Assembly (NCBI GenBank): GCA_964393205.1
Contig: CAYMSV010000004.1
Span: forward strand, 1 to 39,912
DNA from: an uncultured Pseudomonadales bacterium
GTDB taxonomy: Bacteria > Patescibacteriota > Microgenomatia > UBA1400 > PJMF01
Reading direction: 5' to 3'
DNA length: 39,912 bases
The notes beneath the pieces are model-generated. The model was given only the letters and a program-made list of their open reading frames with translations. It had not been told where the DNA came from and made no database searches. Positions 2,684-21,300 of this stretch are shown in pieces. The first letter of the stretch is position 1; each line of letters starts with the position of its first letter. The position numbers and the translations under genes were made by a program.

Positions 2684-3010
2684 ATGATAATAATTAAATT
2701 TCAGGCACTCAATAATTACGAAAAAAGGAAAACTGATAAAGAAGAAGCAGTTAAATTATTGGAAGATTTACAATCAACATATCCAGCTCTATATAAAGAT
2801 GAGGAGGTAGTTTTTGACGTTAAAGTAGATCAAGATCCACACACACTGTATAAAATAGTTACTTTTAATGCATTTATACCAGATCATGGAAAAATATTTG
2901 CTGAGGCTAAAGCGACTACCTTTTTACAAGCACTTTCAAAGATCAAAACAGATCTTTACAGACATAGTCGAAAGGAGACATATGATGAACCAAGTTCCTC
3001 AAAAAAATAA
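2684..3010 (+). CDS. divergent HPF/RaiA (ribosome hibernation factor, S30AE)-like protein
   Basis: 108 aa. The element order matches my recollection of the HPF/YfiA beta-alpha-beta-beta-beta-alpha layout: IKFQALNNYE, helix AVKLLEDLQSTYP, strands EVVFDVKVD / YKIVTFNAFIP / KIFAEAKA, then helix TFLQALSKIKTDLYRHSRKE. Not verified by search. Confidence 0.45.
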   Translation: MIIIKFQALNNYEKRKTDKEEAVKLLEDLQSTYPALYKDEEVVFDVKVDQDPHTLYKIVTFNAFIPDHGKIFAEAKATTFLQALSKIKTDLYRHSRKETYDEPSSSKK

Positions 3011-4154
3011 CAAAGCAGTTGCTGATTTTTTAGCTAGCATTAGTTTTGATCCTAGTCTATGGTTCATATCAATAGCTGTTAACCAGAATATGTCATCTGG
3101 AGATTTACTTCGAATCATTCGCTCGCAACTTCCTGCAAAATTAGAAGAGCATGAGCTTCATACTAAACTTAAGCATCAACTCAGAAAAATGATTAAATAT
3201 ATCCATAACTTTACTCGTCAAGCCCAGGAAGAGGCGAAAAAAGCTGGTAATGATGTTTTTCTTAGTTTTGCTTTTAGAGAAGATGTGCTTGGTGGAGCTG
3301 CTCGAGATAATACAGCAGAATTGTTGCAACAGCGATCCTTTCCTGTAGGAAAAGTGATTGAAACACAACTTACTGTTGCTCATATCCCAGATCTAACTTA
3401 TGTCTATCAGTCAGGCAAAAATGTTTTGAAAGAAGATACTATTACTGTCACCATAGATCCCGAACAACTAATTTGCTATTCAGGAAAAGAAGTTTCTTTA
3501 GAGAAAGTCATTTGGAAAGAAAAAAATATTTTTTCAAAACCAGAAGATGATGAATATATTGAAGTAGTAAATATGTCTACTCAAAATAAAGCCATTCATA
3601 GTACTGGAAGTGAAAAAGTAGAGCGAACTTTTCAAAGTGGTTTGCTTTTATTTGTGAAAAATGAACTTGAAAGAATTGAAAAACAACTTAATCCTCAAGT
3701 TGTTTACTTATATTTTTCACAGTCATATGAGCCTTTAAGAAAAAAAATTGACGCACTGATTGAGAAAAGTATAGCTAGCAAAAAAATCCATCTCGAATAT
3801 ATTTCAAGCGATCAATTTAGGCATGTAGATGCTAATTTAATTAAGCCATCTTTTGGCATGATTAAAGAATTGTCAAAAATTAAAAATAATAAAAGTGCTA
3901 CAAGCAACTTACACGAAATATGTAAATTGATTCGACAAGGCAATCTAGACACTCTTTATTTATCCTCTGAGCTAAATCAATCCGGGTATATTACTCCAAG
4001 TGCTAACTGTTACACCTATCCAGTAAAGGATTCAAAGAAAGTAGATTCAATTAGACCGTGGCTAATTAAGTCAGCTCTAAATATTTCTGCAAAACTTATA
4101 ATCTTGAACACTCAGGATATAGGTAGTGAAGTGCTTGCAATTCCAAGGTATTAG
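2982..4154 (+). CDS. eRF1/Pelota-like (baeRF-type) protein
   Basis: Start set at ATG 2982 (MMNQVPQ...), preceded by AAGGAG at 2972-2977. The ORF-track start at 2868 would overlap most of the HPF-like gene. The C-terminus, GNLDTLYLSS...SAKLIILNTQDIGSEVLAIPRY, resembles the eRF1/Pelota domain-3 signature (GAVETLLIS ... GAKV.IIS....G..L...GGIAAILRY). Confidence 0.45.
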   Translation: MMNQVPQKNNKAVADFLASISFDPSLWFISIAVNQNMSSGDLLRIIRSQLPAKLEEHELHTKLKHQLRKMIKYIHNFTRQAQEEAKKAGNDVFLSFAFREDVLGGAARDNTAELLQQRSFPVGKVIETQLTVAHIPDLTYVYQSGKNVLKEDTITVTIDPEQLICYSGKEVSLEKVIWKEKNIFSKPEDDEYIEVVNMSTQNKAIHSTGSEKVERTFQSGLLLFVKNELERIEKQLNPQVVYLYFSQSYEPLRKKIDALIEKSIASKKIHLEYISSDQFRHVDANLIKPSFGMIKELSKIKNNKSATSNLHEICKLIRQGNLDTLYLSSELNQSGYITPSANCYTYPVKDSKKVDSIRPWLIKSALNISAKLIILNTQDIGSEVLAIPRY

Positions 4155-4186
4155 GTTCAATAGGTTCAAATAGTATGCGCAAAAAA

Positions 4187-4209
4187 ATAGGCATAAAGCC
4201 TATTTTTTT
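4187..4209 (+). terminator. candidate rho-independent terminator, bidirectional in form
   Basis: ATAGGC-ATAAA-GCCTAT hairpin, flanked by an A-run upstream and TTTTTT at 4204-4209. The stem is short. Confidence 0.4.
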
Positions 4210-4212
4210 CTT

Positions 4213-4234
4213 GGCGGAGCATGTGGGTCTGGAA
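4213..4234. repeat. 22-bp direct repeat copy 2; the minus-strand reading ends ...ATGCTCC-G-CCA
   Basis: Identical to 1929-1950. The flanking TT gives a CCA-A end in the tRNA orientation. Confidence 0.85.
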
Positions 4235-4297
4235 CCAGTGTGTCGTTATAACTGTCTTATTCCAGAATCGAGCTTCCAGGGTAATTTTAGCAAAAAC

Positions 4298-4312
4298 GGG
4301 ACAAATGGGACA
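4298..4312. repeat. GGGACAAATGGGACA motif copy 2
   Basis: Identical to 2004-2018. Confidence 0.8.
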
Positions 4313-4359
4313 CTATAAAAAAGGAGTGTCTTGTTTTAGTAGTGATATATTTTGATATA

Positions 4360-5268
4360 TTAATTATCAAACTCTCTCCACTGATTAGCTTTGGCTTCGG
4401 CCACAGACATTGCTCCCAGGCTTATTCTTTTTTTGAGGTCCTCAAGATAACAAAAATCAGGTGAATTACTAATCTTGAGTTTATTAAAAATAACTTTAGC
4501 AATAGAATATTCGAATAAGTGTATTGATATTACTGTCCTATCTTTCTCAAATTCAGGATAAATTAGATGAAATGCTTGTGGTTTTGGTGATAAAAGCAAC
4601 TCAACCTTTATAAGGTTCTGACCATTCAATATTGAGTTTCTAATTCCATTAAATGCATCATCGTATATAGTTCTCCCTAGAAGTAAAGCCAGATATTCGT
4701 AAGCAATTAGGACCATAGCATTAGGTTCCGCAATGGTGTTTTTTGTAAAGTCAGGTTTAAATTTATCTCCATCCCACCTTACAATGGACAAGCCTTTATA
4801 AATCTGCACTTTTTTCCCATTGGGAGTTTCATTTATTTTAGATGCCAATGTCTTTGCAGTTTCAGGATTTAATCCGTGTTCTTGAACTAACTTCTTTTCC
4901 ATAAAACTAACGGCATGCACTGTTGGCAATACAGCTTCACTGCTATCAGTTATTGGTCTTATATGTATTCCAGAGTTAGTTCTTTCAGCTTGTAAGACAG
5001 TTCCAATAGGGCTTTGTGTTGTATATTTCTGTCGCTTTTCTATAGAGTCGAAAATCTTAGGCAGATCATCTTTCAACTTCCAAGCAGCCTGTCTGACCCA
5101 GCTATCAAATTTTATTGAGGAATAAAGCTTCGATCCAATTCCGTGGTTGCATTCTGCACACAAGAGTTGGTGATTCAACCTTCCTCCTAAAAAATCTGGA
5201 ATTACATGTTCAGGTGGTGTCGAGTCATCTAATGCTTTTAAGCAAAGAATACATTTATCAAATTTCAT
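4360..5268 (-). CDS. HNH endonuclease-domain protein with an unknown C-terminal domain
   Basis: N-terminus CILCLK...PEHVIPDFLGGRLNHQLLCAECNHG gives CxxC ... EH ... N ... CxxCNH, a zinc-bound HNH beta-beta-alpha-Me motif. Its start overlaps the upstream gene's stop by 4 nt. Confidence 0.7.
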   Translation of the reverse strand: MKFDKCILCLKALDDSTPPEHVIPDFLGGRLNHQLLCAECNHGIGSKLYSSIKFDSWVRQAAWKLKDDLPKIFDSIEKRQKYTTQSPIGTVLQAERTNSGIHIRPITDSSEAVLPTVHAVSFMEKKLVQEHGLNPETAKTLASKINETPNGKKVQIYKGLSIVRWDGDKFKPDFTKNTIAEPNAMVLIAYEYLALLLGRTIYDDAFNGIRNSILNGQNLIKVELLLSPKPQAFHLIYPEFEKDRTVISIHLFEYSIAKVIFNKLKISNSPDFCYLEDLKKRISLGAMSVAEAKANQWREFDN

Positions 5269-6143
5269 ACCTTCAAGTTCATCCCGGAAAAACTTTTTAA
5301 ATCTTGGTAAATATCTTTATTTTCAAAGTTGTAAACATTCCCTATCATAAAGGTTGCGTTAGCCATAGGAACATTTTTACTTTCAAAACCAGATAAACAA
5401 GAGATGTAATAAAGTATTACACATGAGCCTGAATCAATAATTTTGTTAACCATAGGCTGATTTTTATGCATAAATTCATAAAGAAGTTGATCTAAGCCTG
5501 CTAGAGCAGCCTGTTCACTTATGGAGTGATAAATCAAATCATCATTAATTAAAACTTTATCAAGTGATAGAGCAATCGTTGGTATTCCATCTGGAACAGA
5601 AGATTTTCTTAGTTGTTTCCAGGCTTTTCGAATGTTTTTTTCAACAGACTTTGTGGAAGATGGCCTTTTACACTCAACATTGTAGGTAAATCGACTTGTA
5701 GATACTTGTAAATCGGGATTAGGTTCACCTAATTTCACTTTAGTTCCTAAATTATGCAAAAATGCAAACAAACTAAGCTCAAATGTTGTGTTCCTAGATG
5801 ATGTGTCTTCTGGATTCTCCTCTGAGAGCAAATAAGTACCGTTAGCAAGATCCAACAGTTTATTTTTCACCAGATTGGTATCTTGAGTTGTTTCCTCTAG
5901 TGCCTTAACTATATTAAAAACTTCTAGGGCATAATATTGGCTGTAGTAATACTTTGCCTTATTTTTTTTTAAAAAGTCATGGAATGCCTGATCACTTTTT
6001 GTTCTGGCCGCATCCAATTCTTTTAAGTATGAAAAGTATTGGCAGATTCTAGATTGATTATTAAGTGGAATCTCATGTTTAGAAAAGATTTCCTTGACTT
6101 TTTTCTCAGATTCAATGATTTTAGAGAACTTATATCTTTTCAT
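5265..6143 (-). CDS. PD-(D/E)xK-type nuclease-like protein
   Basis: FELSLFAFL...GEPNPDLQVSTSRFTYNVECKRP gives E ... PD-x12-E-C-K, the restriction-endonuclease-like core motif. 292 aa. Confidence 0.5.
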   Translation of the reverse strand: MKRYKFSKIIESEKKVKEIFSKHEIPLNNQSRICQYFSYLKELDAARTKSDQAFHDFLKKNKAKYYYSQYYALEVFNIVKALEETTQDTNLVKNKLLDLANGTYLLSEENPEDTSSRNTTFELSLFAFLHNLGTKVKLGEPNPDLQVSTSRFTYNVECKRPSSTKSVEKNIRKAWKQLRKSSVPDGIPTIALSLDKVLINDDLIYHSISEQAALAGLDQLLYEFMHKNQPMVNKIIDSGSCVILYYISCLSGFESKNVPMANATFMIGNVYNFENKDIYQDLKSFSGMNLKV

Positions 6144-6149
6144 AATGGC

Positions 6150-6989
6150 CTAATTTTTTAGCATGTCTTTTGAAAACTTTTCAAATTGTACAAAATCTTC
6201 CTTTTTGTAAAGCTTGTATTCCTTAGCAAAAAAGCGCAGTAATACGAAATAGATTTGGTAAGTAATAGAAACAATTCTTTCCACATCTTCTGGAGAGCCA
6301 TCAGTCATTAATCGCTGTTGCCCATTTGAGTCAGTGACAAAGAATCTATTTAGACCTGAGCTATTAAGATGAGCTATCTGTGAAAAAAACTTGTAATATA
6401 GAACATAATATTTCTCTAAACTTTTTCTCTCAGAGAGTTTTTTCTTCTTTTTTAAATATTCGTCAAAAATAATTGCTCTACCTCTAATATCAGGAATCTG
6501 CTTTGGAATCTTATACTTATATCTTTTTGATATTTTCTGTATTTCCAATTCTTTTTCATTTATAAACTGATCCCAATCACTAGGAGACTTAATATGTCCA
6601 AAGGTTAAATTCCATTTCGGATATTTATTCCAAAAACTTCTATGTTTTTCAGCAAAATCTATTTGCTCTTGTATAGAGTCTATAATAAATATAAATGCAT
6701 TTCTTTGAGTTCTTCCAGAGTATATATAGTTAATATTAATAAATGTTTCAACAAGTGATCTGAACAAAACCTCTGAGGCCTTATCAAAATACGGTTCACT
6801 TCTTAATAATTTAAAAATACTTTCACTATAACTTTGAGAAGCGCATACAACTAGGAAAAGCAGTTGTTTTTTAAATCTTACCTTAGTGAAATTAAGCTCT
6901 GTACTACTTAATAAAGTTGAGCCAAATTTAAGTATTTCTCCGAATTGGTTAACAAGATTTTGTTGCTTTGCATTGAATTTATTAGTCAC
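6150..6989 (-). CDS. all-helical protein, AbiV/DUF5677-like (recollection)
   Basis: 279 aa. The stretches LFRSLVETFININYIY and FFSQIAHLNSSGL resemble conserved patches of DUF5677/AbiV-type proteins as I remember them. Gaps to the neighbouring genes are 6 and 9 nt. Confidence 0.35.
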   Translation of the reverse strand: MTNKFNAKQQNLVNQFGEILKFGSTLLSSTELNFTKVRFKKQLLFLVVCASQSYSESIFKLLRSEPYFDKASEVLFRSLVETFININYIYSGRTQRNAFIFIIDSIQEQIDFAEKHRSFWNKYPKWNLTFGHIKSPSDWDQFINEKELEIQKISKRYKYKIPKQIPDIRGRAIIFDEYLKKKKKLSERKSLEKYYVLYYKFFSQIAHLNSSGLNRFFVTDSNGQQRLMTDGSPEDVERIVSITYQIYFVLLRFFAKEYKLYKKEDFVQFEKFSKDMLKN

Positions 6990-6998
6990 AACTTACTT

Positions 6999-7925
6999 TC
7001 ATGCCCGATAATTCTCTAGTAAATCAAGGACTTCTTGGGCTAATAATCCAATATTTTCAATAGTTTCACTTACTTTCTCTTTTTTTAACTTATATTTTCT
7101 TCCATATTTACCTGAGTATTCGGGAACCTTTTTTATAAAATCATCATCAATAACACCCGCATTATGAGTTTGTATGTGTCTCACTTGAAACATTTCTTTA
7201 ATATGTTGTGATTTCTCCAGTCCAACAAAATCAGCAATATTCTTGTGAAACTTATCCTTGAGCGTTGCTTCTAATAACAGGATGTTTTGAAAAAGATTTC
7301 TAGATCTGCTTGGAAAAATTGTTGGATATTTTTTCATTAATGATTTACCAAAAGCATCAAAGCTCGAGACCGATTGTTCTAGAGCATCTGAAATAAGATC
7401 CTCACTTATTTCAGATGCTTCTGGGGTTTCAGAAAGTTTTATTCTCTTTTCGCAAGATTCTAAAGACCTTTTTAGAATTATAAGTGAATTCAACTTTCCA
7501 CAATCAGGGCAATTTGAAAAAACACCATATATAGAGAAAACTAATCCACAGTTATCGCAGGTTACATGTGTTTCGAGTATTTTCTCTTGGTAAGATTTTA
7601 TTGGAAACGATACATCATTTGTTTTAACTTTAATTTTAATAAATTTTGAAGACGACCTTTCAAGATTTTTAAAACTTTTATTCAAATCATGAATTGCAGG
7701 TTCTATAAATTCCTTCGAAAGTAAACTTACGATGTAATCATTCTGTTCTTGAGTAAAAAAATCATTTGAACTGGCCTTATAGCCACAATATGGGCAGATA
7801 TGATCGCTTGTAGACAATCCTGTTCCGAACTTAACGCTAAAATACTCTAGGCATGTTGGACATTGCCTTCCAACAAGCCCATTTTCATCAGTTGGTATTG
7901 AGATCTTCATCTGAGTTGTATGCAT
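6999..7925 (-). CDS. double zinc-ribbon protein with a C-terminal HEPN-like R-x4-H motif
   Basis: CPTC...CPYC and CDNC...CPDC pairs in the N-terminal half. FQVRHIQTHNAG (R-H-I-Q-T-H = Rx4H) lies in a helical C-terminal domain. Confidence 0.5.
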   Translation of the reverse strand: MHTTQMKISIPTDENGLVGRQCPTCLEYFSVKFGTGLSTSDHICPYCGYKASSNDFFTQEQNDYIVSLLSKEFIEPAIHDLNKSFKNLERSSSKFIKIKVKTNDVSFPIKSYQEKILETHVTCDNCGLVFSIYGVFSNCPDCGKLNSLIILKRSLESCEKRIKLSETPEASEISEDLISDALEQSVSSFDAFGKSLMKKYPTIFPSRSRNLFQNILLLEATLKDKFHKNIADFVGLEKSQHIKEMFQVRHIQTHNAGVIDDDFIKKVPEYSGKYGRKYKLKKEKVSETIENIGLLAQEVLDLLENYRA

Positions 7926-7934
7926 TCAGTCTTA

Positions 7935-8264
7935 TTATAAACCCGACTTCTTTGGATATTTCTTCAAAAACTCCTCATTCTCACTCACCAAATAAACCGT
8001 CCAATAAATGTGACCACTTAAATCCTTTAAATCTCTTCCAACTAAACCACCTTCACGTCTTAATTTCTTGATAGAAGATGGATGAACTCCACGATCCTCA
8101 ATATCATATTTATCAAGGTGATCTTCCTCCCACCACTCCTTATCAAGATCTAACACAGGAATCACACCTTCCTGAATATTTCTCCAACAATCTCGACATC
8201 TCAGACCATCTGGTCGCCACCAAATATCCTCACCATCATGTGATCTTCTGCAAATTCCGCAGGT
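7935..8264 (-). CDS. in-frame continuation of the upstream gene (Cys4 zinc ribbon plus C-terminal domain) without its own canonical start
   Basis: Same frame as 8265-9560, separated from it only by TAA (8265-8267). The first 33 codons (TCGICRRSHDGEDIWWRPDGLRCRDCWRN...) contain no ATG, GTG or TTG. The ORF-track start is a GTG at 8165, downstream of the CxxC...CxxC motif. Confidence 0.45.
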   Translation of the reverse strand, partial: TCGICRRSHDGEDIWWRPDGLRCRDCWRNIQEGVIPVLDLDKEWWEEDHLDKYDIEDRGVHPSSIKKLRREGGLVGRDLKDLSGHIYWTVYLVSENEEFLKKYPKKSGL

Positions 8265-9560
8265 TTAACCTCGACCACCATCATTCAGATAAAAGCCATC
8301 AGGCTCATTCTTTAATCTGCGAGTTCTAATACGCTTAGTAGCTTCATATTCAGCACCCATTCGAGCCATTTGTACTAAATGATGATGCTCATACTTTGCC
8401 CTGAATTCAGGATCAAGTTTTGATTTTGGCTTCTTCGGTTCTTCTTTGCCAAAAAGCTTGAGTAAGTCATCTTCAAGCTCATATCCTTTGAGCTTGCCAG
8501 TCAAGAAACCCAAACAATAACTAATCATATCTTTTGGTGCTCGCCAGTTTGAATCTTTGAGGGCTTTCTTCAACAAGTTGTATAGATCAGCAGTGCTTTC
8601 ACGATCTCGTCTTTTAGGCTTGGCTTCTTGAACAGTAAAGGGAACTAATACATACTTATCCATATCTGGATTACCAAACGATAGACGAGTAAAACCACTT
8701 TCTTCCAGTGCTTTATTAACTAATGCTTCAAGATCAGTGATTGAGATTTTGTTTACCGACAGTAGCTTTTCATGAGCAGGAGTGTCCATTTCTGCTAGAA
8801 CTTCAGCTTTGACCTCTTGAGCAACTTCCAAAGCTTCAAGACTTTCAACATATTCTTTGCCTTCTTTATCATTTAGGCAAAATTCAGCTCGATATTTTTC
8901 AAGCAGTTGCCTATCTTCTAGCTCTTTCTGTGCTTGTTCCTTTTCCCACTGTTTATGTTCTTCGTCTCTTTTCTTGAGATCGTATATATCTTTGTTTGAA
9001 TATCCACAGCTTTTGCATTTGTAGAGAGTGGTAATTACCTTACCTTTTCTATTGCTTTTCACTTCTAGTTCTTCTTTACAATCAGGGCAAAAATCTGATT
9101 TGGAAACATAAAACTCTCCATCATCGTAAACACTATGACGTTTGTTGCATTTTTTACATTTGAAAGTGAAAAGAACTCTCAGTGGCTTATCATCATCCCA
9201 ATCAACTAAATGGTGCAAACCATCTTCAGCCATGGAAGTGCCACAATCTGGACAATCAGCTTTAGGGACTAGGGTATTGTCCTGTTTATCCTGTTTGACC
9301 CGATCTGCTTCCATCCATTCCGCAATGGTTGAAGCTCGATCTTTGTATCTGGATGCTTTTATCACAAAAATAAATCTGCCTCTAAAAATCCCCATGTTTT
9401 TCTCATGTTCAGATTCAGGATATTTTTCAAACTTCGGCTCAACCCTGAGCTTCTCGCCAATCCCATCTATCATTTCGAGCTGTCTGAGACATTCTCTAAT
9501 CGTGCCTAGATCATAGCGATCTTCGTAATGTTGTTGTGATTGTAGATATTGAAATGACAT
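8265..9560 (-). CDS. zinc-ribbon / coiled-coil protein of unknown function (possibly the N-terminal 431 aa of a 541-aa protein)
   Basis: CPDC...CKKC and CPDC...CKSC pairs, followed by an E/K-rich coiled segment. Ends at TAA 8265-8267. Confidence 0.65.
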   Translation of the reverse strand: MSFQYLQSQQHYEDRYDLGTIRECLRQLEMIDGIGEKLRVEPKFEKYPESEHEKNMGIFRGRFIFVIKASRYKDRASTIAEWMEADRVKQDKQDNTLVPKADCPDCGTSMAEDGLHHLVDWDDDKPLRVLFTFKCKKCNKRHSVYDDGEFYVSKSDFCPDCKEELEVKSNRKGKVITTLYKCKSCGYSNKDIYDLKKRDEEHKQWEKEQAQKELEDRQLLEKYRAEFCLNDKEGKEYVESLEALEVAQEVKAEVLAEMDTPAHEKLLSVNKISITDLEALVNKALEESGFTRLSFGNPDMDKYVLVPFTVQEAKPKRRDRESTADLYNLLKKALKDSNWRAPKDMISYCLGFLTGKLKGYELEDDLLKLFGKEEPKKPKSKLDPEFRAKYEHHHLVQMARMGAEYEATKRIRTRRLKNEPDGFYLNDGGRG

Positions 9561-9633: not shown

Positions 9634-11478
9634 ATGAAATCAAAGGAAAAACACACCGATAAAAAAGAAAAATCCTCTTTGAGAAAAAGAATAACTCTCA
9701 AATCACTTACAACATTTTTTGGAGTAACTTGGATTTTAACAATACTTATCTTCTTGGCCTTCCTAGTGGTGGGTACAAACTTTTTTCAAACAACAGTGGA
9801 TAAAGGACCGCTACAGAGTGATATCTGGGTTGTTATCTTACTCGTTGATATTCTGGGCGGGATTGGATCATTTTTACTTTTTAGCATGTTTTTAACAGCA
9901 CTGGCGATGAAAAATAAAAAGAATGAGAAAAAGAAAACATCTTTGGCTAAGAAACTTATTTCTTTCCTATTATTCTTTGTATATTTAGCTGTTCTTCCAA
10001 TTTATTTACTTAATAAAATCTGGAAACCAAAACAGCTAATTTCATTTTTCAAAGATGCAAAGAAAAATTTTAGTAAGAAAAACGCAGTCTCTTTTGGAAA
10101 AAAAATACTTGCTTCACTTCCTATCCTCGCATTTTTATTTCCTGTATGGATTATTGGTTATTTCTCAGTTGGAGCGATAACAGCAGACAGCTTGGGTTTA
10201 GTGCCGTATCAAATGGATATTGTTGGGACTGGATCTATGTATCCAACATTCCCAAAAGGAGAAGGTCGTGACCCAAAAGAATTAGCTCAACAAGTAGTCG
10301 GCCGACAAGATATGTTTAATTATCCCAATGGTCTTCAACTTGGAGGAAAAAGATATTTCAGTCATACCATTGCTCGAGGAGATATTATTACAGTAGAGGA
10401 TGAGAAAACAAGGAAAGCTACTGAAGAAGTATACGGAGATCCATCTGGTTGGTTGAAACGCGTAATTGCTGTTGCTGGAGACACTTTAGAGATCAGGGAT
10501 GGTATCGTGTATCTCAATGGTGAGGCTCAAAAAGAACCATATGTTGCTAAAGCAAGATCTACGTTTGGACAATCTTTCTTAGAAGAATGCAAACAGGTAA
10601 CCGTTCCTGAAAACTCAGTCTTTGTAATGGGCGATAACAGAACCGGAAGTCGCGATTCAAGAGATGTTGGCTTTTTTAACATCGATGATATTAAATCCGT
10701 ATACCCATTTGATAAACAATTGAAGTCCCTAACTCAAAATTGGCATGACATCACAAATGACCTTGAAGAGTCTTCACGCATCAAACTTGATAAAGAAAAA
10801 TATTTGGAAGAACTGAACAAAAAACGAGAAGAAGAAGGATTGAAGCCACTTACATACAATGAGAAGTTAGAACAATCAGCTCAAAAAAGAGGTGAAGTAA
10901 TTTTGAAATACAATGATTTTTCATTTGAAGCAACTGCTAGTGCTTACACAATGGAAAAAGCTATTCATGAAGTTGGTTATTACAACACTTTTTGGGGTGA
11001 AGCTCCATCTAATGGTTACTATGAATCTGATGAGCTCCTAGAAAACCAACTTGAATTTCCTGAGTCGAAGGACTTTATTTTTGATAAAAGATTTCAAGAA
11101 ATTGGTATCGCTGAAGTCAGCGGTGAAACAAATGGATGCCCATCACATGTGATCGTGCAACACTTTGGCGGGTACGTTCCACCCAACTATTCAGCGTCTG
11201 ATATACAATCCTGGGAAGAAGCACTGTCTTCTTTAAGAAATATTCAACCAAGTTGGAATGACTTGAAAAATTCTGGAGACTATTACAACCGACATAAAGA
11301 TAAGATAGATAGAATTACTTATATTATTGATTTACGCATTAACAAAATTACGGACATTGTTGGTACTATGAGAGCGAAGAAGTGGTTTTCGGCAGACCAA
11401 AGAGCATTTGTTGAATCTGGTGATATGGCCTTGTATAGGGAACAAGAAGAATTAGCTACATTTCTAAATAGTCAATGA
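9634..11478 (+). CDS. lepB: signal peptidase I (S26) fused to an N-terminal polytopic membrane region and a C-terminal CAP/SCP-like region
   Basis: GTGSMYPTF (catalytic Ser), KRVIAVAGD (catalytic Lys box) and VMGDNRTGSRDSR (box E). About five hydrophobic helices in the first 190 aa. The C-terminal LKPLTYNEKLEQSAQKRG...WGEA...IGIAEV pattern is like YkwD/CAP domains. Confidence 0.8.
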   Translation: MKSKEKHTDKKEKSSLRKRITLKSLTTFFGVTWILTILIFLAFLVVGTNFFQTTVDKGPLQSDIWVVILLVDILGGIGSFLLFSMFLTALAMKNKKNEKKKTSLAKKLISFLLFFVYLAVLPIYLLNKIWKPKQLISFFKDAKKNFSKKNAVSFGKKILASLPILAFLFPVWIIGYFSVGAITADSLGLVPYQMDIVGTGSMYPTFPKGEGRDPKELAQQVVGRQDMFNYPNGLQLGGKRYFSHTIARGDIITVEDEKTRKATEEVYGDPSGWLKRVIAVAGDTLEIRDGIVYLNGEAQKEPYVAKARSTFGQSFLEECKQVTVPENSVFVMGDNRTGSRDSRDVGFFNIDDIKSVYPFDKQLKSLTQNWHDITNDLEESSRIKLDKEKYLEELNKKREEEGLKPLTYNEKLEQSAQKRGEVILKYNDFSFEATASAYTMEKAIHEVGYYNTFWGEAPSNGYYESDELLENQLEFPESKDFIFDKRFQEIGIAEVSGETNGCPSHVIVQHFGGYVPPNYSASDIQSWEEALSSLRNIQPSWNDLKNSGDYYNRHKDKIDRITYIIDLRINKITDIVGTMRAKKWFSADQRAFVESGDMALYREQEELATFLNSQ

Positions 11479-12893
11479 AACTTACAAAATCACTTTTCAT
11501 CGAATACTTAGATTCACCACTCCACATGTGGCTGAAAGCACACAGTGAAGTGACTCCTAAAGCACCCTCAGTCTATGACCAACACATCATGAAACAAGGT
11601 TATGAAATTGAAAAACTTGCCAAGGTATTTTTGGAGAAAAAAGTGGCTCGTGAGTATCCAGCTGGCACCACCATTTCCTTTGAAGAAACGTTGACTGATG
11701 GTAATTACCAGTCACGTATTGATGCTTTGGTACACGACACTACTAATAACACCTATGACTTATACGAAATAAAAAGTAGCACTACTATCCATACTGAACA
11801 CAAGTATGACGTGACTTTCCAGCATTTAATTGCGAAAGCAAGTTTGCCAGTACATAAAACGTACTTAGTGCGTGTGAATAGTGATTATCGACGTGAAGGC
11901 GAGATCGATCTCAATCAGCTATTTATCATCGAAGACATGGAGCATGAGATTGCTAAAAGGGAGGACGAGGTTTATGAGCTTCGTTCAGATGCTTGGTCAA
12001 CTTTGCGATTAGAAATAATGCCAGTTGATGAGCATTGTCTCAACCCAAGCACTTGCTCATATCCTGCAATCTGTTTCCCAAATTTGCCTGACTATCCGAT
12101 TTACGACTTGAGTCGAGGGAGTAAGAATCAGTATCGAGAATTGATTGACCTCGGTATTCAGTCAGTTAAAGACATTCCTGATACCTGCAAATTGACCTCA
12201 AAGCAAAAAATGCAAATTCAGTCTGCTCGTAGTAGTCAGCCAATTATTAAACACGACGCTATTAAAAAACAACTTGATAGCTTGGAATACCCACTCTATT
12301 TCCTAGACTATGAAACCTATGCAGAAGCTTTGCCTATGCATGACCACTATGGACCATATCAACAAATCACCACTCAGTTTTCCATTCATGTCGCAGAGTC
12401 TCCAGAAAGTAAGGATTTTAAGCATTATGAATTTCTTGCACGGGAGAAAAATGATCCAGCTTCAGAATTAGCAAAAGCACTCTGTAATGTGATTGGTGAG
12501 ACTGGCACCATTATTGTTTGGAATAAAGGCTTTGAGTGTGGCAGGATTGAAGAGTTGGCGGTACTTGTACCAGAATATGCAGAACAACTAGCAAGTATTA
12601 ATAAACGAACTTTTGATTTAATGGAAGTTTTTTCTAAGGGGTTGTATGTTGATTTCCAATTTCATGGGAGTGCTTCAATCAAAAAAGTATTACCTATCTT
12701 AGCTCCTGAGCTGAGTTATAAAACTCTAGAGATTGGCGAAGGTGCTACAGCCATGATCAAATGGCATGAGATGGTGTATGGCGATATAACAGATGAGGAA
12801 CGAGATACTATTGCAAATAATTTATTGACGTATTGCAAATTAGATACATGGGCAATGGTGGAGATTTGGCGAAAACTAAGAGAATTGATGTAG
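11475..12893 (+). CDS. DUF2779-like protein (PD-(D/E)xK plus RNase-H-like exonuclease halves)
   Basis: LTKSLFIEYLDSPLHMWL at the N-terminus, DALVHD...YDLYEIKSST, and YPLYFLDYETY...PYQQITTQFSIH. ATGA overlap with lepB. Confidence 0.65.
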   Translation: MKLTKSLFIEYLDSPLHMWLKAHSEVTPKAPSVYDQHIMKQGYEIEKLAKVFLEKKVAREYPAGTTISFEETLTDGNYQSRIDALVHDTTNNTYDLYEIKSSTTIHTEHKYDVTFQHLIAKASLPVHKTYLVRVNSDYRREGEIDLNQLFIIEDMEHEIAKREDEVYELRSDAWSTLRLEIMPVDEHCLNPSTCSYPAICFPNLPDYPIYDLSRGSKNQYRELIDLGIQSVKDIPDTCKLTSKQKMQIQSARSSQPIIKHDAIKKQLDSLEYPLYFLDYETYAEALPMHDHYGPYQQITTQFSIHVAESPESKDFKHYEFLAREKNDPASELAKALCNVIGETGTIIVWNKGFECGRIEELAVLVPEYAEQLASINKRTFDLMEVFSKGLYVDFQFHGSASIKKVLPILAPELSYKTLEIGEGATAMIKWHEMVYGDITDEERDTIANNLLTYCKLDTWAMVEIWRKLRELM

Positions 12894-13979: not shown

Positions 13980-14789
13980 TTAGTTACTTTCAAGTTCTTT
14001 CACCTGCATAAACTTAACTTCCTGTTCATAGATTGGCACAAACTGATTGTCTTTTAACACAAATCTTGTTCTCAGTACTCCAGTAGAGCAACATCTAGCG
14101 GAATCATCAAAAAGTCTTTGCTCAACATAAAAACCGTTATTTGTATCAGCTGAAATGATGGTTGCATCATCACCATTTGCTGAAAAAATAATCTTATTAT
14201 CTTTCACAATATCAGCACTAGTTGAGCCGCCGTCTGCACGGCAGTTGTAATTTTTGTGAACAATTGCTTCGTCTTTGTTGTCTCCATCAACATCAAAGTA
14301 ATCAATTTTATAAATTTCTTGATCAGGTAAAGTATAGGTAGTAAATGGACCATGTTCTTGATAGTTTTCTCTAGCTGTTTGCACCGGCCAATCCAAGTCA
14401 CAATCTTTTTTAAGTAGTCCAAGAGCTTCCTCTAAAGGTAAAGCCTCCAGATCTCTAACAGAGCTATCATAATCAGTGAGGGTAATTTCAGAAGTAGGAT
14501 ATGACTGATACACAGCAGTGTTATTAAGCGCTAACTGACTAAATTGTCTAATATCACCTTCTTCAAATTCTTTATAGTGATCTGCAGAACCCCAACGGAT
14601 ATCATCGTAATTAAAATAGGTAACATCTAGGGGCAGTGGCTGAAAACTATCTCCTGTGGTTTCTGAAGCAACCTCGGTGTTAGCTGTTTCAGTTTGACTG
14701 AGTACTTCTTGAGTTTTTGGAGCAGTAAAACGTCCAAGAATAAATGAGAGAAAGATAAGAGAGATAATTGTTATGATCTTTCTATTCAT
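13980..14789 (-). CDS. secreted or membrane-anchored protein with an FG-GAP/VCBS-like DxDxDG motif
   Basis: N-terminal signal/anchor IITIISLIFLSFILGRF and the motif YFDVDGDNKDEAIV. Its ATG overlaps the methyltransferase TGA (ATGA at 14786-14789). Confidence 0.6.
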   Translation of the reverse strand: MNRKIITIISLIFLSFILGRFTAPKTQEVLSQTETANTEVASETTGDSFQPLPLDVTYFNYDDIRWGSADHYKEFEEGDIRQFSQLALNNTAVYQSYPTSEITLTDYDSSVRDLEALPLEEALGLLKKDCDLDWPVQTARENYQEHGPFTTYTLPDQEIYKIDYFDVDGDNKDEAIVHKNYNCRADGGSTSADIVKDNKIIFSANGDDATIISADTNNGFYVEQRLFDDSARCCSTGVLRTRFVLKDNQFVPIYEQEVKFMQVKELESN

Positions 14790-17700
14790 TTATTTGCAAT
14801 TTCTACTAACTTAATTTCCTCATCTGTTAATTCATACAATCTATAAACCATTTGGTTGATCTTTTTTTCTAAGTTCACCTGCTCGATGGGTGGGTTTTGA
14901 GGATCATAATTATCAGCAGATGTGATGGACAATATTTGATTAGTCAAATCAATGAAAGGTTGTTGATTAGATTTTGAAATTACCTTTATAGGAATTTCTG
15001 ATAATGGTCTCTTATATAGCTCAAGAGTATCGCCTTTTCTCTTGCCTCTGTTATATAGCCAAAAATAAATTAATTTAGAGTTTAATACAGATAACAAATA
15101 AGCAATTTCTAAATCATTTCTTATTGAAGTTATGTAATAAACATCACCAGCGCCAATAAGAGTGCCATCAGTTTTAGCAAATACATTCTTTTTAGAACGA
15201 TATGGACAAACAATATGTTTACCGGTGTCAACCAAGAAACTTCTTTTTGATCCTCTGAGCCAATACCAAGAGTTTTCATCATCATTAACCTGTTCTCTGG
15301 CTTTTAATATTGGACGAAATTTTGAAAGGTAATTTTTTATCCAAGGATAATTTTGAATATTTACTTCAGAGTCAACATATATATAAAACATTTCTTTTTT
15401 CAAAGAAACAAAAAATTTATAAATATCAGAATTCTTAATAAATGGCTTAATTATTTCATTTCTCTCAAACTTAGGAATATTTTCATAAGTTTCAAAATCA
15501 ATAATATATATGTTTGTTCCTATTTTTATATTATTTCTTGATAGATAATCATCAGTCACATATCTATTTTCTAAAGCTCTATTAAGAAGTGCTTTTCCCA
15601 CAACGTCTGCTCCAGACTGAACACCCATGTTTATATAACTAAGTTCACCCAAATCTACGCAGTTAGTTTTTATCTTATTTAATAATTTCGATTTTTTAGA
15701 ATCAGAATTATTTATACCTTCAAATCTGATGTAGTTATTCTCACCATCATATATTTGACCTTGAGATAAAGTTAAATATTTAGTTTCATCGTTTTTATTG
15801 TGAATTATCTCTGTTAATAAGTTTTCGCTAGCAGTGCCTTTTTTATTTGTGATAATTATTTTTGCATGGCAATTTTTATCTATTCTCTTTTCAAAAATTG
15901 TGATCATATTATGTTGACCAAGAGCAGATTTAAATATTCTAAGTTCATTAAAATTAATTAGATTTCTAATGACAGATCTATTCTTTAGATCTGATCGGAG
16001 TTTTTTGGCTCCATCAGCTGTGACAAAATAATTAGTTGTAATAAAAGCATTTTGAGATTCATCTCTACCAATATTTAACGCCAAATGAAAGAAAAAATAA
16101 AAAAGATCCATTTTTCTTTGGTAAAATGACTTGAGATTTCCATTGCTGATTTCTCTAAAGATTTTTTTATTTCCTTTTTCTCCAACATAAGGCGGATTGC
16201 CAATAACTATATCGAAACCGCCTTTTTCTTTAAATACATCACTGAATTCAAGCTTCCAAATGAAAAATGGCTTAATATTCTTATGTCTAAGTTTAACAAG
16301 ATTATTGAGCTCTTTAACTTTCTTCTGCTCTTTGAATGATTCCTCAATAATTTCCCATTTCAAGTTATCTATATCTTCTTTTAGTGTTTGTTTCTTTGTC
16401 TTCTGTGACTCATCCACATACTGACTTATTTTATTTTGCAAATCTTCAAGCTTCAGTTCTGAATTTGATTTTCCAAAGCCAAATGGTAATTGCTCTGGCT
16501 TGGAATCTTCTGTTTTTCCAAATATTCCTTCATCGAATAATTTGATACCTTCATATTCTGAAATCAAACTATTTCCTTGCATTATTTTGTGATCAAGGTT
16601 GGGCAGCGGGCTTGGAGTAGACTCTTCTACAATAAGAGTTAGCCATAAACGAAGTTTGGCGATCTCTACTGCACCAGGATCAATATCAACTCCATGAATT
16701 GAATTAGAGATAGCATGTTTTTTAAGTTGGTAGTCAGTGAGTCTTTTATCTAAATAAATGTTTAAGATTTTTCTGGCTCTGACGATTTCATTAATCATTC
16801 CTAATGGAAAAGCTCCAGAACCAACTGCTGGATCGGCAACCTTGATGTTCATTAGAAGCTCGTCCAACTCACTTGCTTTCTTTATAATAGATTCTGCTAA
16901 TAAAAGCTCATACTTGCCAGTATATTTATACCCTCGTTTTTGCTTTTCTCTAATTTTCTTTAAGGCTACACTGTCATTTTCAATAATTCTATCTCCTGTA
17001 TAGATAAAACTTTCAATGTCTTTTCTTTCAATCCCTTCAGTCTCAGATTCCAAATAATTGATCAGGCACTCTTGGCACATGTAATGCACAATTTCTCTAG
17101 GGGTATAGAATGCACCTTTGCTTTTTCTGTCTCTGACTTGAAGTAAGTTTTCAAAAACCTTACCAAGCATTTCTGGATCAACAGCAACTTCTTTTTCTAG
17201 GGGTTCATTTTCATTAACAGTAAAGTTGTATCTATCAAAAACGTCTAAAATACCATTGCCTTTATCTCCATTTTTCGTGGGAATATTATTGGAGAATACT
17301 TCATCAGGTATGTTGATATTAGTTGTTTCCCATGCATAATCGTTCATTGGCTCAAACAAACCACCGTTTAAAAATGGCATCTTACAGTTATTGAGTTTTG
17401 GATAAAATGAATTTTTACCTCTGTCTTGAGCTAGAGCCTCATAAAATAGTGGCTCTAATACATCATTGAAAAAGTTTTTACCATATTTTGATCTTCTCTC
17501 AAAGAGCTCTCTTAAAAAGTTTTTAGGCCCATCTCCCCAGGATTTATCTGGAGCAACTCCAAACCAGCCCTTCTTTTGAAGAAAATAAAGAAAGACAATT
17601 TGGCCCATTGTTTTCTTTGCAAAATCAACAGTATCAATTTCTTTAGAATTAAACTCATTTTTAATACTTTCATCATCTGAAATTATTTTTTCTAAATTCT

Positions 17701-18319
17701 CCTTGAAAATCAAGAAAAGTTCCTTGTACTTCTCAAAAAACTCGTTGGTTACTACTTCAATATCAAATGCAGATTCGAATTCTTCTAAGTTTGGTTTTTG
17801 ATTACTTACTAGAAGATTAACAAATCTACTCTGTGCAGTATGTGTTCCTTCGTTTCTCCCAACCAGAAAAGACCATCTTTTAGCTGGTGTAATTTCTTCT
17901 TTTGTAGATATCTTATTATTTTTAACTTCTAGAGAGTGTTCAAGTTTTATAAGTGAAAAGCGCCAATCATTTTTACTTTGAGGAATAAACGCAACCAATG
18001 CCGCTAGTTTATTATTAGATTTCAAATAGTCTGCAACGAAATTTCTTTGGGCAGTTCTAGCTCTGTCTAATGATTTATCATTTGTTAAATTTACTTCTAG
18101 GATATCTATCTTCTGTGATTTATCATCTTCGAAATGACCAAGGACTTTATAGTTATCAATAAATGACTTGAAAGAATCTTTTACATACGTGTTGTCAACA
18201 TTTTTGTTAACCCTTGTAAAATCTTTTAACAAATTACTAATAAAGAGCTGAAATTTATTATCATTAAACTCTGTACTAAAAACTTCGTTGATTATTCTTT
18301 TAGCATCACTTTGTTTCAT
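14786..18319 (-). CDS. Eco57I/YeeA-type N6-adenine DNA methyltransferase with a TaqI-like C-terminal specificity domain
   Basis: Motif I is VADPAVGSGAFPLG. HGVDIDPGAVEIAKLRLWL is present. Motif IV is VIGNPPYVGEKG. The C-terminal LSVLNSKLIYFWLYNRGKRKGDTLELYKRPLSEIPI is TRD-like. 1177 aa. Confidence 0.85.
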   Translation of the reverse strand: MKQSDAKRIINEVFSTEFNDNKFQLFISNLLKDFTRVNKNVDNTYVKDSFKSFIDNYKVLGHFEDDKSQKIDILEVNLTNDKSLDRARTAQRNFVADYLKSNNKLAALVAFIPQSKNDWRFSLIKLEHSLEVKNNKISTKEEITPAKRWSFLVGRNEGTHTAQSRFVNLLVSNQKPNLEEFESAFDIEVVTNEFFEKYKELFLIFKENLEKIISDDESIKNEFNSKEIDTVDFAKKTMGQIVFLYFLQKKGWFGVAPDKSWGDGPKNFLRELFERRSKYGKNFFNDVLEPLFYEALAQDRGKNSFYPKLNNCKMPFLNGGLFEPMNDYAWETTNINIPDEVFSNNIPTKNGDKGNGILDVFDRYNFTVNENEPLEKEVAVDPEMLGKVFENLLQVRDRKSKGAFYTPREIVHYMCQECLINYLESETEGIERKDIESFIYTGDRIIENDSVALKKIREKQKRGYKYTGKYELLLAESIIKKASELDELLMNIKVADPAVGSGAFPLGMINEIVRARKILNIYLDKRLTDYQLKKHAISNSIHGVDIDPGAVEIAKLRLWLTLIVEESTPSPLPNLDHKIMQGNSLISEYEGIKLFDEGIFGKTEDSKPEQLPFGFGKSNSELKLEDLQNKISQYVDESQKTKKQTLKEDIDNLKWEIIEESFKEQKKVKELNNLVKLRHKNIKPFFIWKLEFSDVFKEKGGFDIVIGNPPYVGEKGNKKIFREISNGNLKSFYQRKMDLFYFFFHLALNIGRDESQNAFITTNYFVTADGAKKLRSDLKNRSVIRNLINFNELRIFKSALGQHNMITIFEKRIDKNCHAKIIITNKKGTASENLLTEIIHNKNDETKYLTLSQGQIYDGENNYIRFEGINNSDSKKSKLLNKIKTNCVDLGELSYINMGVQSGADVVGKALLNRALENRYVTDDYLSRNNIKIGTNIYIIDFETYENIPKFERNEIIKPFIKNSDIYKFFVSLKKEMFYIYVDSEVNIQNYPWIKNYLSKFRPILKAREQVNDDENSWYWLRGSKRSFLVDTGKHIVCPYRSKKNVFAKTDGTLIGAGDVYYITSIRNDLEIAYLLSVLNSKLIYFWLYNRGKRKGDTLELYKRPLSEIPIKVISKSNQQPFIDLTNQILSITSADNYDPQNPPIEQVNLEKKINQMVYRLYELTDEEIKLVEIANK

Positions 18320-18323
18320 AAAA

Positions 18324-21300
18324 TTATTTACCTTTAAAGTATTCTGAGAGGATTATTTCTTTTTTGGCAGAAACATTCATATTTATACCATTATCTGAAT
18401 CTTCCAAAAATTCTGATGGAAGAGTGGTTTTTAAAATACCCAAAATTTTGATTGGATTATTAATAATCTCAATATTTTGAGATAGTTCCTGATAAATTTT
18501 CTGAGTTACTTTTTTAGGGATACCTCCGCTATTGAGCTCAACGATAACTCTTCGGACATATTCTTCGTCATCCTCAGTAAACTTTTCATAATTTTTTACC
18601 TGCTTAGCATTTAAGATTTTAAAAAGTCTAGCGGCATTATCTCTACTTCCTCTTTTGGTTGAAAATTCATTTTCTTCATAATCTTCTACCTGATTTAACA
18701 TCAAAAGATTCTTTTCAAGTAATTGGTAGAACAACTCATCAATCGTCATTCTCTTTTCACTAGCATTGGCATGAAGTGTTTTCGCCGCTTCAATAAAGTC
18801 AATTTCACGCGCATCTGTAGAAGAAGAGTTTTCGACAATAAAGAATTTTTGAATCTTTCCTTTTCTAAAGTATGTTAAAAGCTCTGTTTTAGAGTTCTGT
18901 GATTTTCTTGCAGTGCGAGCTTTCTTAGGGAGTCTTTTTATTTTTGCAAACAGTTTGGGATCATTATCTCTGATATCTCTGATTTCTTGTAAGTATCCCA
19001 AGTCGCTTTCTTCATTTTGATCTTCTCCCTCAATCATTTCTTTTGAAAGCATTCGACTAAATAAACTATGTCCCTCTGGAATTTCGTCGTCCGTGAGAAG
19101 CTTGGCATCAGCCCCAAGTAAAGTAATAAATGCTTGAATTTTTGCTTCGGCTAGTTCTTTTAGTTTAATTTGTTCGTTGGATTGCTCAGTAGGGAATAAA
19201 GTATAGGTATAAATTTCTTTATGCTTGGTGTCGACTCTATTTATACGTCCTACCCTCTGCATAATCTTGGTGGGATTCCAAGGAATATCGTAATTAATTA
19301 CAACATTGGCTTGGTGAAGATTAGCACCTTCAGATAAAACGTCAGTAGTTATTAAAACTTTATAGTCGTTTTTTATGACTCTGGAATTTGCATCAAAATT
19401 TTCCATCACAATTTCTCTTTCAGCTAGAGAACTCCCACCTGAAAAATAAATGATTTGGTCTGGAAAAATATCCTGCAGGTTTTTTAGTAGGTATTCTGCC
19501 GTCTCTTTTGATTCAGTAAAAATAATAGACTTACCACTTTTTACTGGTTCTTCTAAAGATAGTTTTTCTTTAAAAGCTAAAATCTTAGGATCTCTAGAGA
19601 TATTAGCCCAGAGTTTCTTGATATTTCTTAAGATTTCAAGATCTTCCTGTAAGTTGTTAATAAACTTTTCAGTAAAATCCTTCGTCTCAAATTTTTCAGC
19701 CTTATTATCTTCTACTAGTTTGTCGATTGCTTCTAAATTTCCTTCATCCAGATAATCGAAAATTTTCTGTATATGACTTCTACTAACGTAAACGCTTCCA
19801 TCTTCGTATGTTTCAATAAATCTCTCATACGAAGAAATAAATCGATCAATTGTTTTATTAAATGCATAAAAGCTACTTTCCAGTCTTTTTATCAGCAACA
19901 TTTTCATGAATTTCATCATGTTTTTCTGTTGATGTTTTTCTTGGTTAGTAATTCCTTTGTAGTATAAAAGAGGAGTGTAACGAGAATACTTAAAATCATT
20001 GGTAATTATTTTTAAAGTCTCAAAAAATACAGCATCTTCTTCTTTGCTAAATTCGTAAAATATTGGTGCAGGATCAGCAATTTTAGGAAAACTCATTTTT
20101 TGATTCTGAAGATCGTCTCCGTAGTATTTAACGATCTCAGTTCTAGTTCTTCTGACCATTAAATATTTAAGCACCTTTTCTCTGATCAATTTGGAATTTT
20201 CTTTTGTAACATCAATGTACTGTTGTTTATCTTTTTTTCGATCAAGATCTTTTAGTTTTTTGTCCAAAACCTTAAAAAAGCCTTCTAAGTTTGGTAAGTT
20301 AGGGATCGTACTTTGCTTTGATCTCTGAAAGAGTTTTATCTGAGAGAGTAAATCTTTTGGCGAATTATTATATGGTGTAGCAGTAACAAGAATAACTTTT
20401 TTTCCTCGGCAGATTTGGGCAAGTTTTGCATAAGTTTCAGTTTCTTCGGTGCGGAATCGATGTGATTCATCAATTAAAACTATGTCATATTCTTTATGCA
20501 AATCCTTATCGATAATTTTATCCAGCATTCCTATTGATTCACACCTATAGTCTTTAGATCTAAAACCAAAGTTTTTAAAAGAATTTTTCCAACTACCTTC
20601 ATTATTTTCATCAATCAAGTGAGGGGGGGCTAATACCAAAATTCTCCCTGCTAGCTCTTGGCAAAGCATAGTACCCATATATGTCTTACCAAGACCAACT
20701 ACGTCAGATAAAAATACGCCACCATATTCATCAACTATTTTTTTTGCGTTGATAACAGCATGATCTTGATATTTCAGTTCTTTAAAATTATCTGGCCTGT
20801 AATTATGACTCAAATTTTCTTCTTCATTGATTTCTTCTCTGAAGTATTCATAGAGAAATTTCAAATAGAGTTCGTATGGGGTAATGTCTTCTCTAATCCA
20901 AGTATCTTTTTCAATTGTTTCAATATATTTTTCACTAACATCGATGCCATTTTCCCAAAGTTCATTAAATTTATTCAATGCAAATTTATAGTCTGAGGGA
21001 TTTTTAAGCTCGACGTTAAATTCCAAATTATCTACTAAACCACTTTGTGTAAAATTGCTGGAACCTGTAATCACTCTCCCAAGATCTCGATCATCTTCAT
21101 CGAAGGTCATTATGTAGAGTTTTGAATGAATTTTTTCTTCAGGGTAAGCTCTTACTTCAAGCTTTCCAGACTTTAGCCATTCAAGAAACTTGTGTGCTCC
21201 TGTCTCAACTTCATGGTTATTTTCACTCTCATCCATCTCATTTTTAATACTTTCACCAATATCATCACCAATCTCCTTGTAGGATTTTGAGACCTGAAGA

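Follow-up and report, generated by a model that had tools for sequence, protein, structure and literature searches.

DNases that are heterodimeric or have dual active sites include R.BspD6I, with its large and small subunits, and Cas9, which carries HNH plus RuvC. HEC-08 is a single-gene defence protein with HEPN and zinc-finger-like domains, and mutation of the histidine in its Rx4-6H motif abolishes protection (Payne et al., bioRxiv 10.1101/2024.01.29.577857). PDC-M14A is a 'guilt-by-embedding' defence candidate. In candidate-phyla-radiation bacteria, with their tiny genomes, defence beyond restriction-modification (RM) is scarcely known. Here, we analysed a block of four consecutive genes, g1 to g4, on contig CAYMSV010000004.1 of an uncultured bacterium placed in the Patescibacteriota; the whole 39,912-nucleotide (nt) stretch is referred to as the window, and the loci fetched for comparison (approximately 170) are numbered L001 onward. 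A first-pass annotation had proposed that the four genes constitute one undescribed defence system of four different nucleases. We instead interpret the block, with about even confidence, as belonging to a defence island of a Patescibacteria-type genome and as built of separable modules, namely a stand-alone g1, g2, and a recurrent g3-g4 pair. The four-nuclease "system" is thus replaced by testable units: a zinc-ribbon-HEPN gene, a DUF5677 gene, and a PD-(D/E)xK plus HNH pair. The biochemical activities and the defence role assigned to all four genes below are predictions from sequence.

Separability of the four genes and recurrence of g3-g4

As first annotated, g1 to g4 are tightly packed minus-strand open reading frames (ORFs), with intergenic spacings of 9, 6, and -4 nt, the start of g4 overlapping the stop of g3 by 4 nt. 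A consensus scan detected no terminator-like hairpin in the gaps between them, in agreement with the annotation, and fewer promoter-like sites than in shuffled sequence (12 versus 22). The block is probably co-transcribed. Two other elements of the first-pass annotation did not hold up. The array does not begin at position 7925, since a co-directional reading frame, 'up', stops 9 nt before g1, and the case for horizontal acquisition from low guanine-plus-cytosine (GC) content was weak: block GC was 32.3%, compared with 35.5% for the window and 35.8% for lepB, and 16% of same-size windows were equally low, for which reason a strong GC anomaly was rejected.

Gene co-occurrence was determined by hidden Markov model searches over all fetched loci. 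Relatives of g1 alone were found in 83 loci, g3 alone in 78, and g3 together with g4 in five, while all four genes, or cut-off copies of the block, were confined to nine: the clones of the window (L001-L006), its 97% copy (L099), and the sister lineage L087/L088. None of the 83 other g1 loci had g2, g3, or g4 beside g1, and none of the 78 g3-only loci had g1, g2, or g4 beside g3. The order of the four genes is therefore not kept outside the window lineage, L099, and L087/L088, and these counts do not support the proposal that the four genes, or five with 'up', work as one machine. We regard such a single system as improbable. Short gaps that lack a terminator are what it would predict, and the block is indeed kept as a unit in L087, where the order up-g1-g2-g3-g4 is retained at 72% nucleotide identity, and in L099, where a 97.4%-identical 4.6-kilobase (kb) copy of window positions 4214-8781 lies in otherwise unrelated DNA. 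However, the full set spans a narrow divergence only, and, as all its occurrences are close relatives, physical linkage explains them equally as well as joint function. In L089, with a g1 relative of 59% identity, the four-gene order is gone and an unrelated gene of 418 amino acids (aa) follows g1, and L176 carries g2-g3-g4 without g1. The L176 segment shares 89.6% nucleotide identity with L087, the homology ending exactly at the g2 start codon and approximately 60 nt after the g4 stop, with unrelated flanks on either side and a tRNA-Ser gene, not g1, upstream of g2. The breakpoints in L099 and L176 indicate that the block can move as a unit and that sub-blocks can as well.

The only part of the block to recur across divergent lineages was g3-g4. 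Homologs of g4 were rare, 17 among 5.8 billion proteins, and all belonged to the candidate phyla radiation; approximately 15 g4 contexts were examined. A g3 relative lay directly upstream of g4, at a spacing of -4 to +3 nt and with differing outer flanks, in six lineages (the window, L087/L176, L178-180, L177, L091/92, and L104-106), with g4 identities to the window protein of 47 to 68% in the other pair-bearing lineages. Given that a g3 gene immediately precedes g4 in six lineages at approximately 50% identity, the pair represents a candidate two-nuclease module of Patescibacteria and, as judged from these gene orders, the one recurrent unit of the block. It is previously undescribed and absent from Pfam and PADLOC, except for the N-terminal HNH_5 domain of g4, and by the names of the homolog sources it appears restricted to Patescibacteria and Nanoarchaeota. 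The association is not reciprocal, since approximately half of the g3 relatives occur without g4.

These data also bear on a view in which all four genes are independent, single-gene abortive infection (Abi)-type or restriction-type genes whose adjacency, including that of g3 and g4, reflects hotspot packing and co-transfer. Gene neighbourhoods of g1 and g3 vary greatly, the genomes are compact, and signs of cassette exchange are present, namely a conserved boundary element and N-terminal codons that recur in otherwise different partner genes, all as this view would have it. It does not readily accommodate the conserved succession of g3 and g4 in six lineages while both outer flanks change, nor a seventh lineage, L183, in which the gene upstream of the g4 relative encodes an unrelated 508-aa protein that also bears a D-x12-ECK motif, nor the finding that g3 clades track partner type in a rough neighbour-joining tree. 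Complete independence is hence doubtful, if the least so of the alternatives considered here.

A further possibility is that g2-g3-g4 forms a functional three-gene system to which g1 was added later as a neighbour. L176 and L087 share exactly these three genes at the identity given above and between unrelated flanks, which is what such a unit would look like. All other g3-g4 pairs, however, lack a DUF5677 gene (L091/92, L104-106, L177, and L178-180), and distant g2 relatives match a single-gene candidate, PDC-S52. A 294-aa gene upstream of g3 in L177/178 was considered as a hidden DUF5677 member and rejected, being unrelated to that family (hhalign probability 0.25%). We consider the three-gene system unlikely and retain the interpretation of g1, g2, and g3-g4 as separable modules.

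Table 1. Positions of the block genes and associated features in the window.
Feature	Coordinates	Strand	Product length	Description
g1	6999-7925	minus	308 aa	double zinc ribbon + HEPN-like domain
g2	6150-6989	minus	279 aa, GTG start	DUF5677 family
g3	5265-6143	minus	292 aa	N-terminal helical domain + PD-(D/E)xK core
g4	4360-5268	minus	302 aa	HNH_5 + C-terminal domain without known relative
'up'	7935-9560	minus		zinc-ribbon-rich reading frame upstream of g1, split by in-frame TAA
boundary element	4213-4320	not assigned		non-coding, downstream of g4
second copy of 22-base pair core	1929-1950	not assigned		exact repeat of 4213-4234

Domain composition and families of the four proteins

Domain assignments upheld the description of the products as predicted nucleases for g1 (HEPN), g3 (PD-(D/E)xK), and g4 (HNH_5), and the catalytic motifs initially read in these three proteins are all conserved among their homologs. 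The assignment of g2 stood only in part: it belongs to DUF5677 and does not match AbiV. No named defence system was recognised in the four proteins and their neighbours in scans against PADLOC, Pfam, NCBIfam, and PHROGs. Profile searches of the Protein Data Bank (PDB) by sequence returned nothing significant for any of the four families. A phage origin was rejected, as tblastn searches recovered no relatives of g1, g2, or g3 in phage genomes.

The g1 protein comprises a double zinc-ribbon region (aa 1-145) and a HEPN-like helical domain (aa ~147-308), with both CxxC..CxxC ribbons and R249-x4-H254 invariant in 33 homologs of 43 to 72% identity. In total, 321 homologs of approximately 305 aa were recovered from bacteria and archaea. 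The AlphaFold model had a predicted local distance difference test (pLDDT) score of 82, with residues 147-307 helical and mostly at pLDDT 88 to 98. Nine of the ten top Foldseek matches of the C-terminal domain in the PDB were HepT-type toxins, at probabilities up to 0.98 and a best E value of 0.06, and no curated HEPN sequence model from Pfam, NCBIfam, or PADLOC matched g1 at E up to 1. Residues 1-144 matched positions 1-149 of the 152-position PADLOC profile PDC-M14A (E 2.7e-18); no match to the second PDC-M14 component was found by PADLOC in g2, g3, g4, or both flanking proteins.

Across 80 fetched genome loci with g1 relatives (Chloroflexota, Bacteroidota, Proteobacteria, Methanosarcina, Nanoarchaeia, and others), tblastn found none of g2, g3, g4, or 'up', and the neighbours of g1 were highly variable among the loci. 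A type I RM gene occurred within 10 kb of the g1 relative in 17 loci, and in seven of the 80 genome loci g1 was flanked on both sides by co-directional Hsd genes, as in the order HsdM-HsdS-g1-HsdR of L022. The g1-type gene is thus widely distributed and repeatedly found inside type I RM operons. Relatives were also present on 23 plasmids, the one context inspected being a solitary g1. We read g1 as a predicted stand-alone RNase-type defence gene, in which the zinc-ribbon domain would act as sensor or nucleic-acid-binding part and the HEPN Rx4H site would cleave RNA upon infection, leading to growth arrest or abortive infection. On a Natrinema salinisoli plasmid (L181, 4000-5459), a gene of its own (149 aa) corresponds to the zinc-ribbon half of g1 and directly follows the gene for a putative effector of a different kind, a 334-aa, possibly PLD-like protein with an HDRYIIRD motif; this gene pair probably corresponds to the PDC-M14 cassette.

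The g2 protein matched Pfam DUF5677 (PF18928; 57.8 bits versus a cut-off of 27.1, 1.8e-15), as did all 34 relatives sampled, and 117 representative relatives were found. It is an all-helical protein with an enzyme-like set of invariant residues (R77, E81, D176, Y195, and H207). Six of the 34 relatives matched the PADLOC single-gene candidate PDC-S52, while g2 itself had no PADLOC match. Identification of g2 as AbiV was rejected, since neither g2 nor any of the 34 relatives matched the Pfam HEPN_AbiV or PADLOC AbiV profiles, and a HEPN relationship between g2 and g1 was likewise rejected (hhalign probability 2.3%). Contexts of g2 relatives were covered in the fetched loci, and no plasmid match to g2 was found. 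The gene would be either independent or an accessory of g3-g4.

The g3 protein consists of an N-terminal helical domain (aa 1-131) and a PD-(D/E)xK core (E122, D144, E157, K159, and Q177). The PD-x12-ECK core noted initially was confirmed: E122 and PD144-x12-E157-C-K159 were invariant in 29 sequences, down to 23% identity, and so was Q177. In the structural model (pLDDT 88, predicted template modelling score 0.89), the signature residues are carried by an alpha-beta-beta-beta-alpha-beta core (H115-131, E135-138, E145-148, E153-159, H164-178, and E187-193). None of the fold matches reached E 0.001, and nearly all of the top ones were PD-(D/E)xK nucleases at E 0.02 to 0.5, including Cdn1, PspGI, HindIII, AF1548, Hjc, Can1, LmuA, and phage 'restriction endonucleases'; the BspD6I subunits were among the weak matches. 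No match to g3 was found in Pfam, PADLOC, NCBIfam, or PHROGs. As judged by the names of the homolog sources, the family of 87 homologs is largely composed of Patescibacteria and Nanoarchaeota.

In the 76 metagenome loci fetched with g3 relatives, the gene downstream of g3 relatives other than those paired with g4 encoded a membrane trypsin-like protease, a small P-loop protein, or a 183-aa zinc-ribbon protein, or there was none. An adaptor domain common to g4 and these alternative partners was sought and none was detected by hhalign. Unrelated genes that follow g3 relatives share the start MINI[LV]ERQFDR (L093 8882-9433, L095 8882-10168, and L103 1781-3067), the products being the 183-aa zinc-ribbon protein and a 428-aa membrane trypsin-like protease; this shared start suggests gene replacement by recombination within the first codons of the downstream gene. 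On a speculative reading that we think would probably prove wrong, g3 founds a new family of PD-(D/E)xK nucleases, found only in Patescibacteria and DPANN archaea, that serves as a hub and pairs with interchangeable, translationally coupled partners (g4, the membrane trypsin-like protease, the small P-loop protein, and a zinc-ribbon nuclease-like protein), forming modular two-gene immune systems whose cassettes would be swapped at the conserved MINI[LV]ERQFDR junction and delimited by a non-coding recombination site of approximately 36 nt.

The zinc-bound HNH motif first noted in g4 was present as a Cys4 HNH domain (aa 6-49) matching Pfam HNH_5 (34.6 bits versus a cut-off of 27.5), and its residues C6xxC9..E20H21..C37xxC40N41 were at least 90% conserved in 16 sequences. 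The remainder, flagged initially as a domain of no recognised type, proved to be a conserved C-terminal domain of 250 aa for which no known relative was found. No methyltransferase domain was found in g1 to g4 or 'up', the nearest being encoded at 14786-18319 and 21816-23084. With no methyltransferase attached to g3-g4, such a module would have to spare host DNA either by being modification-dependent or by becoming active upon infection.

Several observations weigh against the reading of the block as separable defence modules with a functional g3-g4 pair. The four genes and part of 'up' also move together, as the L099 copy in unrelated flanks attests, and in L087 all five genes retain 72% nucleotide identity compared with 47% identity for a flanking DUF2779 protein, both of which would fit joint function. 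With regard to the pair, L182, which has the most divergent g4 relative (35% identity), lacks a partner gene upstream of it, and g3 relatives occur without g4, some with other tightly linked downstream genes, such that g3 clearly works without g4. Compact genomes such as these normally have tightly spaced genes, the fold matches of g1 and g3 fall short of significance, and the only DUF5677 gene assayed in one published study did not figure among the five reported as protective.

Genomic context, upstream frame, and boundary element

As inferred from the surrounding genes, the block is in a defence context, with a PLD-SNF2 gene and an MmeI/Eco57I-type methyltransferase nearby and g1 relatives in type I RM operons. 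On the minus strand at window positions 14786-21509, a 1061-aa PLD (NgoFVII-like)-SNF2 helicase is encoded ahead of a 1177-aa Eco57I/MmeI-type methyltransferase that has a TaqI_C specificity domain, and the pair looks like a two-gene RM-like system. Relatives of these proteins (33 to 55% identity) were encoded immediately upstream of g3 arrays (L093-L096, L109, L113, and L115) and also upstream of archaeal g1 relatives (L008 and L009). Given this setting, a role outside defence, whether as selfish or homing nucleases or as DNA-repair or housekeeping genes, is highly improbable. HNH and PD-(D/E)xK domains do occur also in homing endonucleases and repair enzymes; yet the distribution is patchy across phyla and includes plasmids, some members lie within type I RM operons, neither introns nor inteins were seen in the context, and the neighbours include MmeI-like/PLD-SNF2, cyclic oligonucleotide-based antiphage signalling system (CBASS)-like SMODS, HEPN_AbiU2, and DUF4145 genes.

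The 'up' frame consists of 431 codons, an in-frame TAA at 8265-8267, and a further 109 codons. The TAA, which is present in six metagenome contigs, stands where Tyr is conserved (TAT in L099, Y in L087 and L089). The L087 counterpart is uninterrupted at 539 aa, and in L099 the N-terminal two-thirds are replaced entirely, leaving a 192-aa ORF (3631-4209). The frame thus looks disrupted in the window, and the TAA is either a fixed nonsense mutation, giving a pseudogene or a gene split in two, or a read-through site. The C-terminal ~190 aa contain CxxC..CxxC and a conserved tail ending ...VYLVSENxxFLxKYP, and this part (window 7935-8264) is found as a stand-alone gene of approximately 192 aa near g3/g4 arrays (L093 9438-10016, L183 248-832, and the L099 ORF). 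Further C-terminal relatives were present in L094 and N-terminal relatives in L091/92. No Pfam family matched 'up'; its C-terminal protein may be an island-associated regulator.

The boundary element, non-coding and downstream of g4, consists of a 22-base pair (bp) core at 4213-4234 and GGGACAAATGGGACA approximately 70 to 90 nt away. In array orientation it reads TGTCCCATTTGTCCCATT ... GGTTCCAGACCCACATGCTCCGC and is positioned just after the last array gene. Copies were found in the window (4213-4320 and 1929-2030), L087 (13785), L093 (11049), L097 (7942), and L099 (7909-7930), such that the element is conserved across several genomes whose proteins share only approximately 50% identity. Homology between the window and L099 stops exactly at its outer edge. 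The first-pass annotation had placed the start of the four-gene block right after the 22-bp repeat. The repeat is real, but since its partner lies at 1929-1950, the pair brackets a neighbouring opposite-strand module of 2.3 kb (helix-turn-helix, 94-aa, 108-aa, and 428-aa genes) rather than the four genes. As candidates for the repeat, a tRNA fragment, an Rfam family, and a stable RNA were each rejected, with no tRNA, no Rfam match, and a folding z-score that was not significant. The element may be a recombination or operator site and, together with the transfer of the block, hints at how islands are assembled in these organisms.

Three observations were made on the flanking genes. The 428-aa ORF of the bracketed module (2868-4154, plus strand) had a sub-threshold match to the NCBIfam ribosome-hibernation-factor model AOC03_06830 (E 5.6e-5, 22.8 bits versus a cut-off of 330). 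On the plus strand at 21816-23084, a 422-aa ParB_N plus N6_N4 methyltransferase fusion is encoded, relatives of which (47 to 50% identity) are separated by a few genes from the g3-g4 pairs of L091/92 and L177. The DUF2779 gene (window 11475-12893) shares 47% identity with its counterpart in L087 (6890-8329), compared with 62 to 82% for the array proteins, and the array therefore seems younger than the flank or exchanged independently of it.

Comparison with described systems

For g2, the closest described entry is PDC-S52/DUF5677. The likeness lies in the DUF5677 match of g2 and all 34 relatives, of which six match PDC-S52, and the difference in the PDC-S52 profile not matching g2 itself.

For g3-g4, R.BspD6I and Cas9 offer a parallel in that two different nuclease active sites are encoded together, an arrangement that could permit one cut per strand. 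By the mechanism we envisage, g3 and g4 would act as a two-subunit DNase, the two active sites cutting opposite strands of invading DNA, with the N-terminal helical domain of g3 and the C-terminal domain of g4 supplying recognition or control. Unlike those enzymes, g3-g4 has no methyltransferase partner and no guide RNA, and no significant similarity to them was found, so that the likeness would be one of mechanistic analogy. Should g3-g4 prove to be a genuine two-subunit nuclease defence, it would be a new and compact system that might also yield a new dual-nuclease tool; otherwise, the locus would be one more defence island of the ordinary kind.

The HepT/MntA-type toxins (PDB 6M6U, 7BXO, and 5YEP) gave the best matches to the g1 C-terminal domain, with probabilities of 0.8 to 0.98 and a template modelling score of approximately 0.6 on the target, and have the Rx4H motif in common with it. 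The Foldseek E values were 0.06 to 0.4, and in contrast to these toxins g1 has an additional double zinc ribbon and no MntA-like nucleotidyltransferase antitoxin. PDC-M14 resembles g1 in its component A module, which corresponds to g1 residues 1-144; however, PDC-M14 is a two-gene 'phage defence candidate' cassette in which the Natrinema partner is separate, whereas g1 fuses the module to HEPN.

By analogy, HEC-08 would be the nearest functional precedent for g1. The two differ in domain order, the HEPN domain (DUF3644) being N-terminal in HEC-08 and C-terminal in g1, and neither the DUF3644 model nor any other HEPN model of Pfam matches g1, a distinction drawn from the description of HEC-08 rather than from its sequence. 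Both, however, join a HEPN domain bearing the Rx4-6H motif to zinc-ribbon or zinc-finger modules within one protein, both are found embedded in other defence systems, and SO_3166 (5YEP), the structural match of HEC-08, is also among the fold matches of g1.

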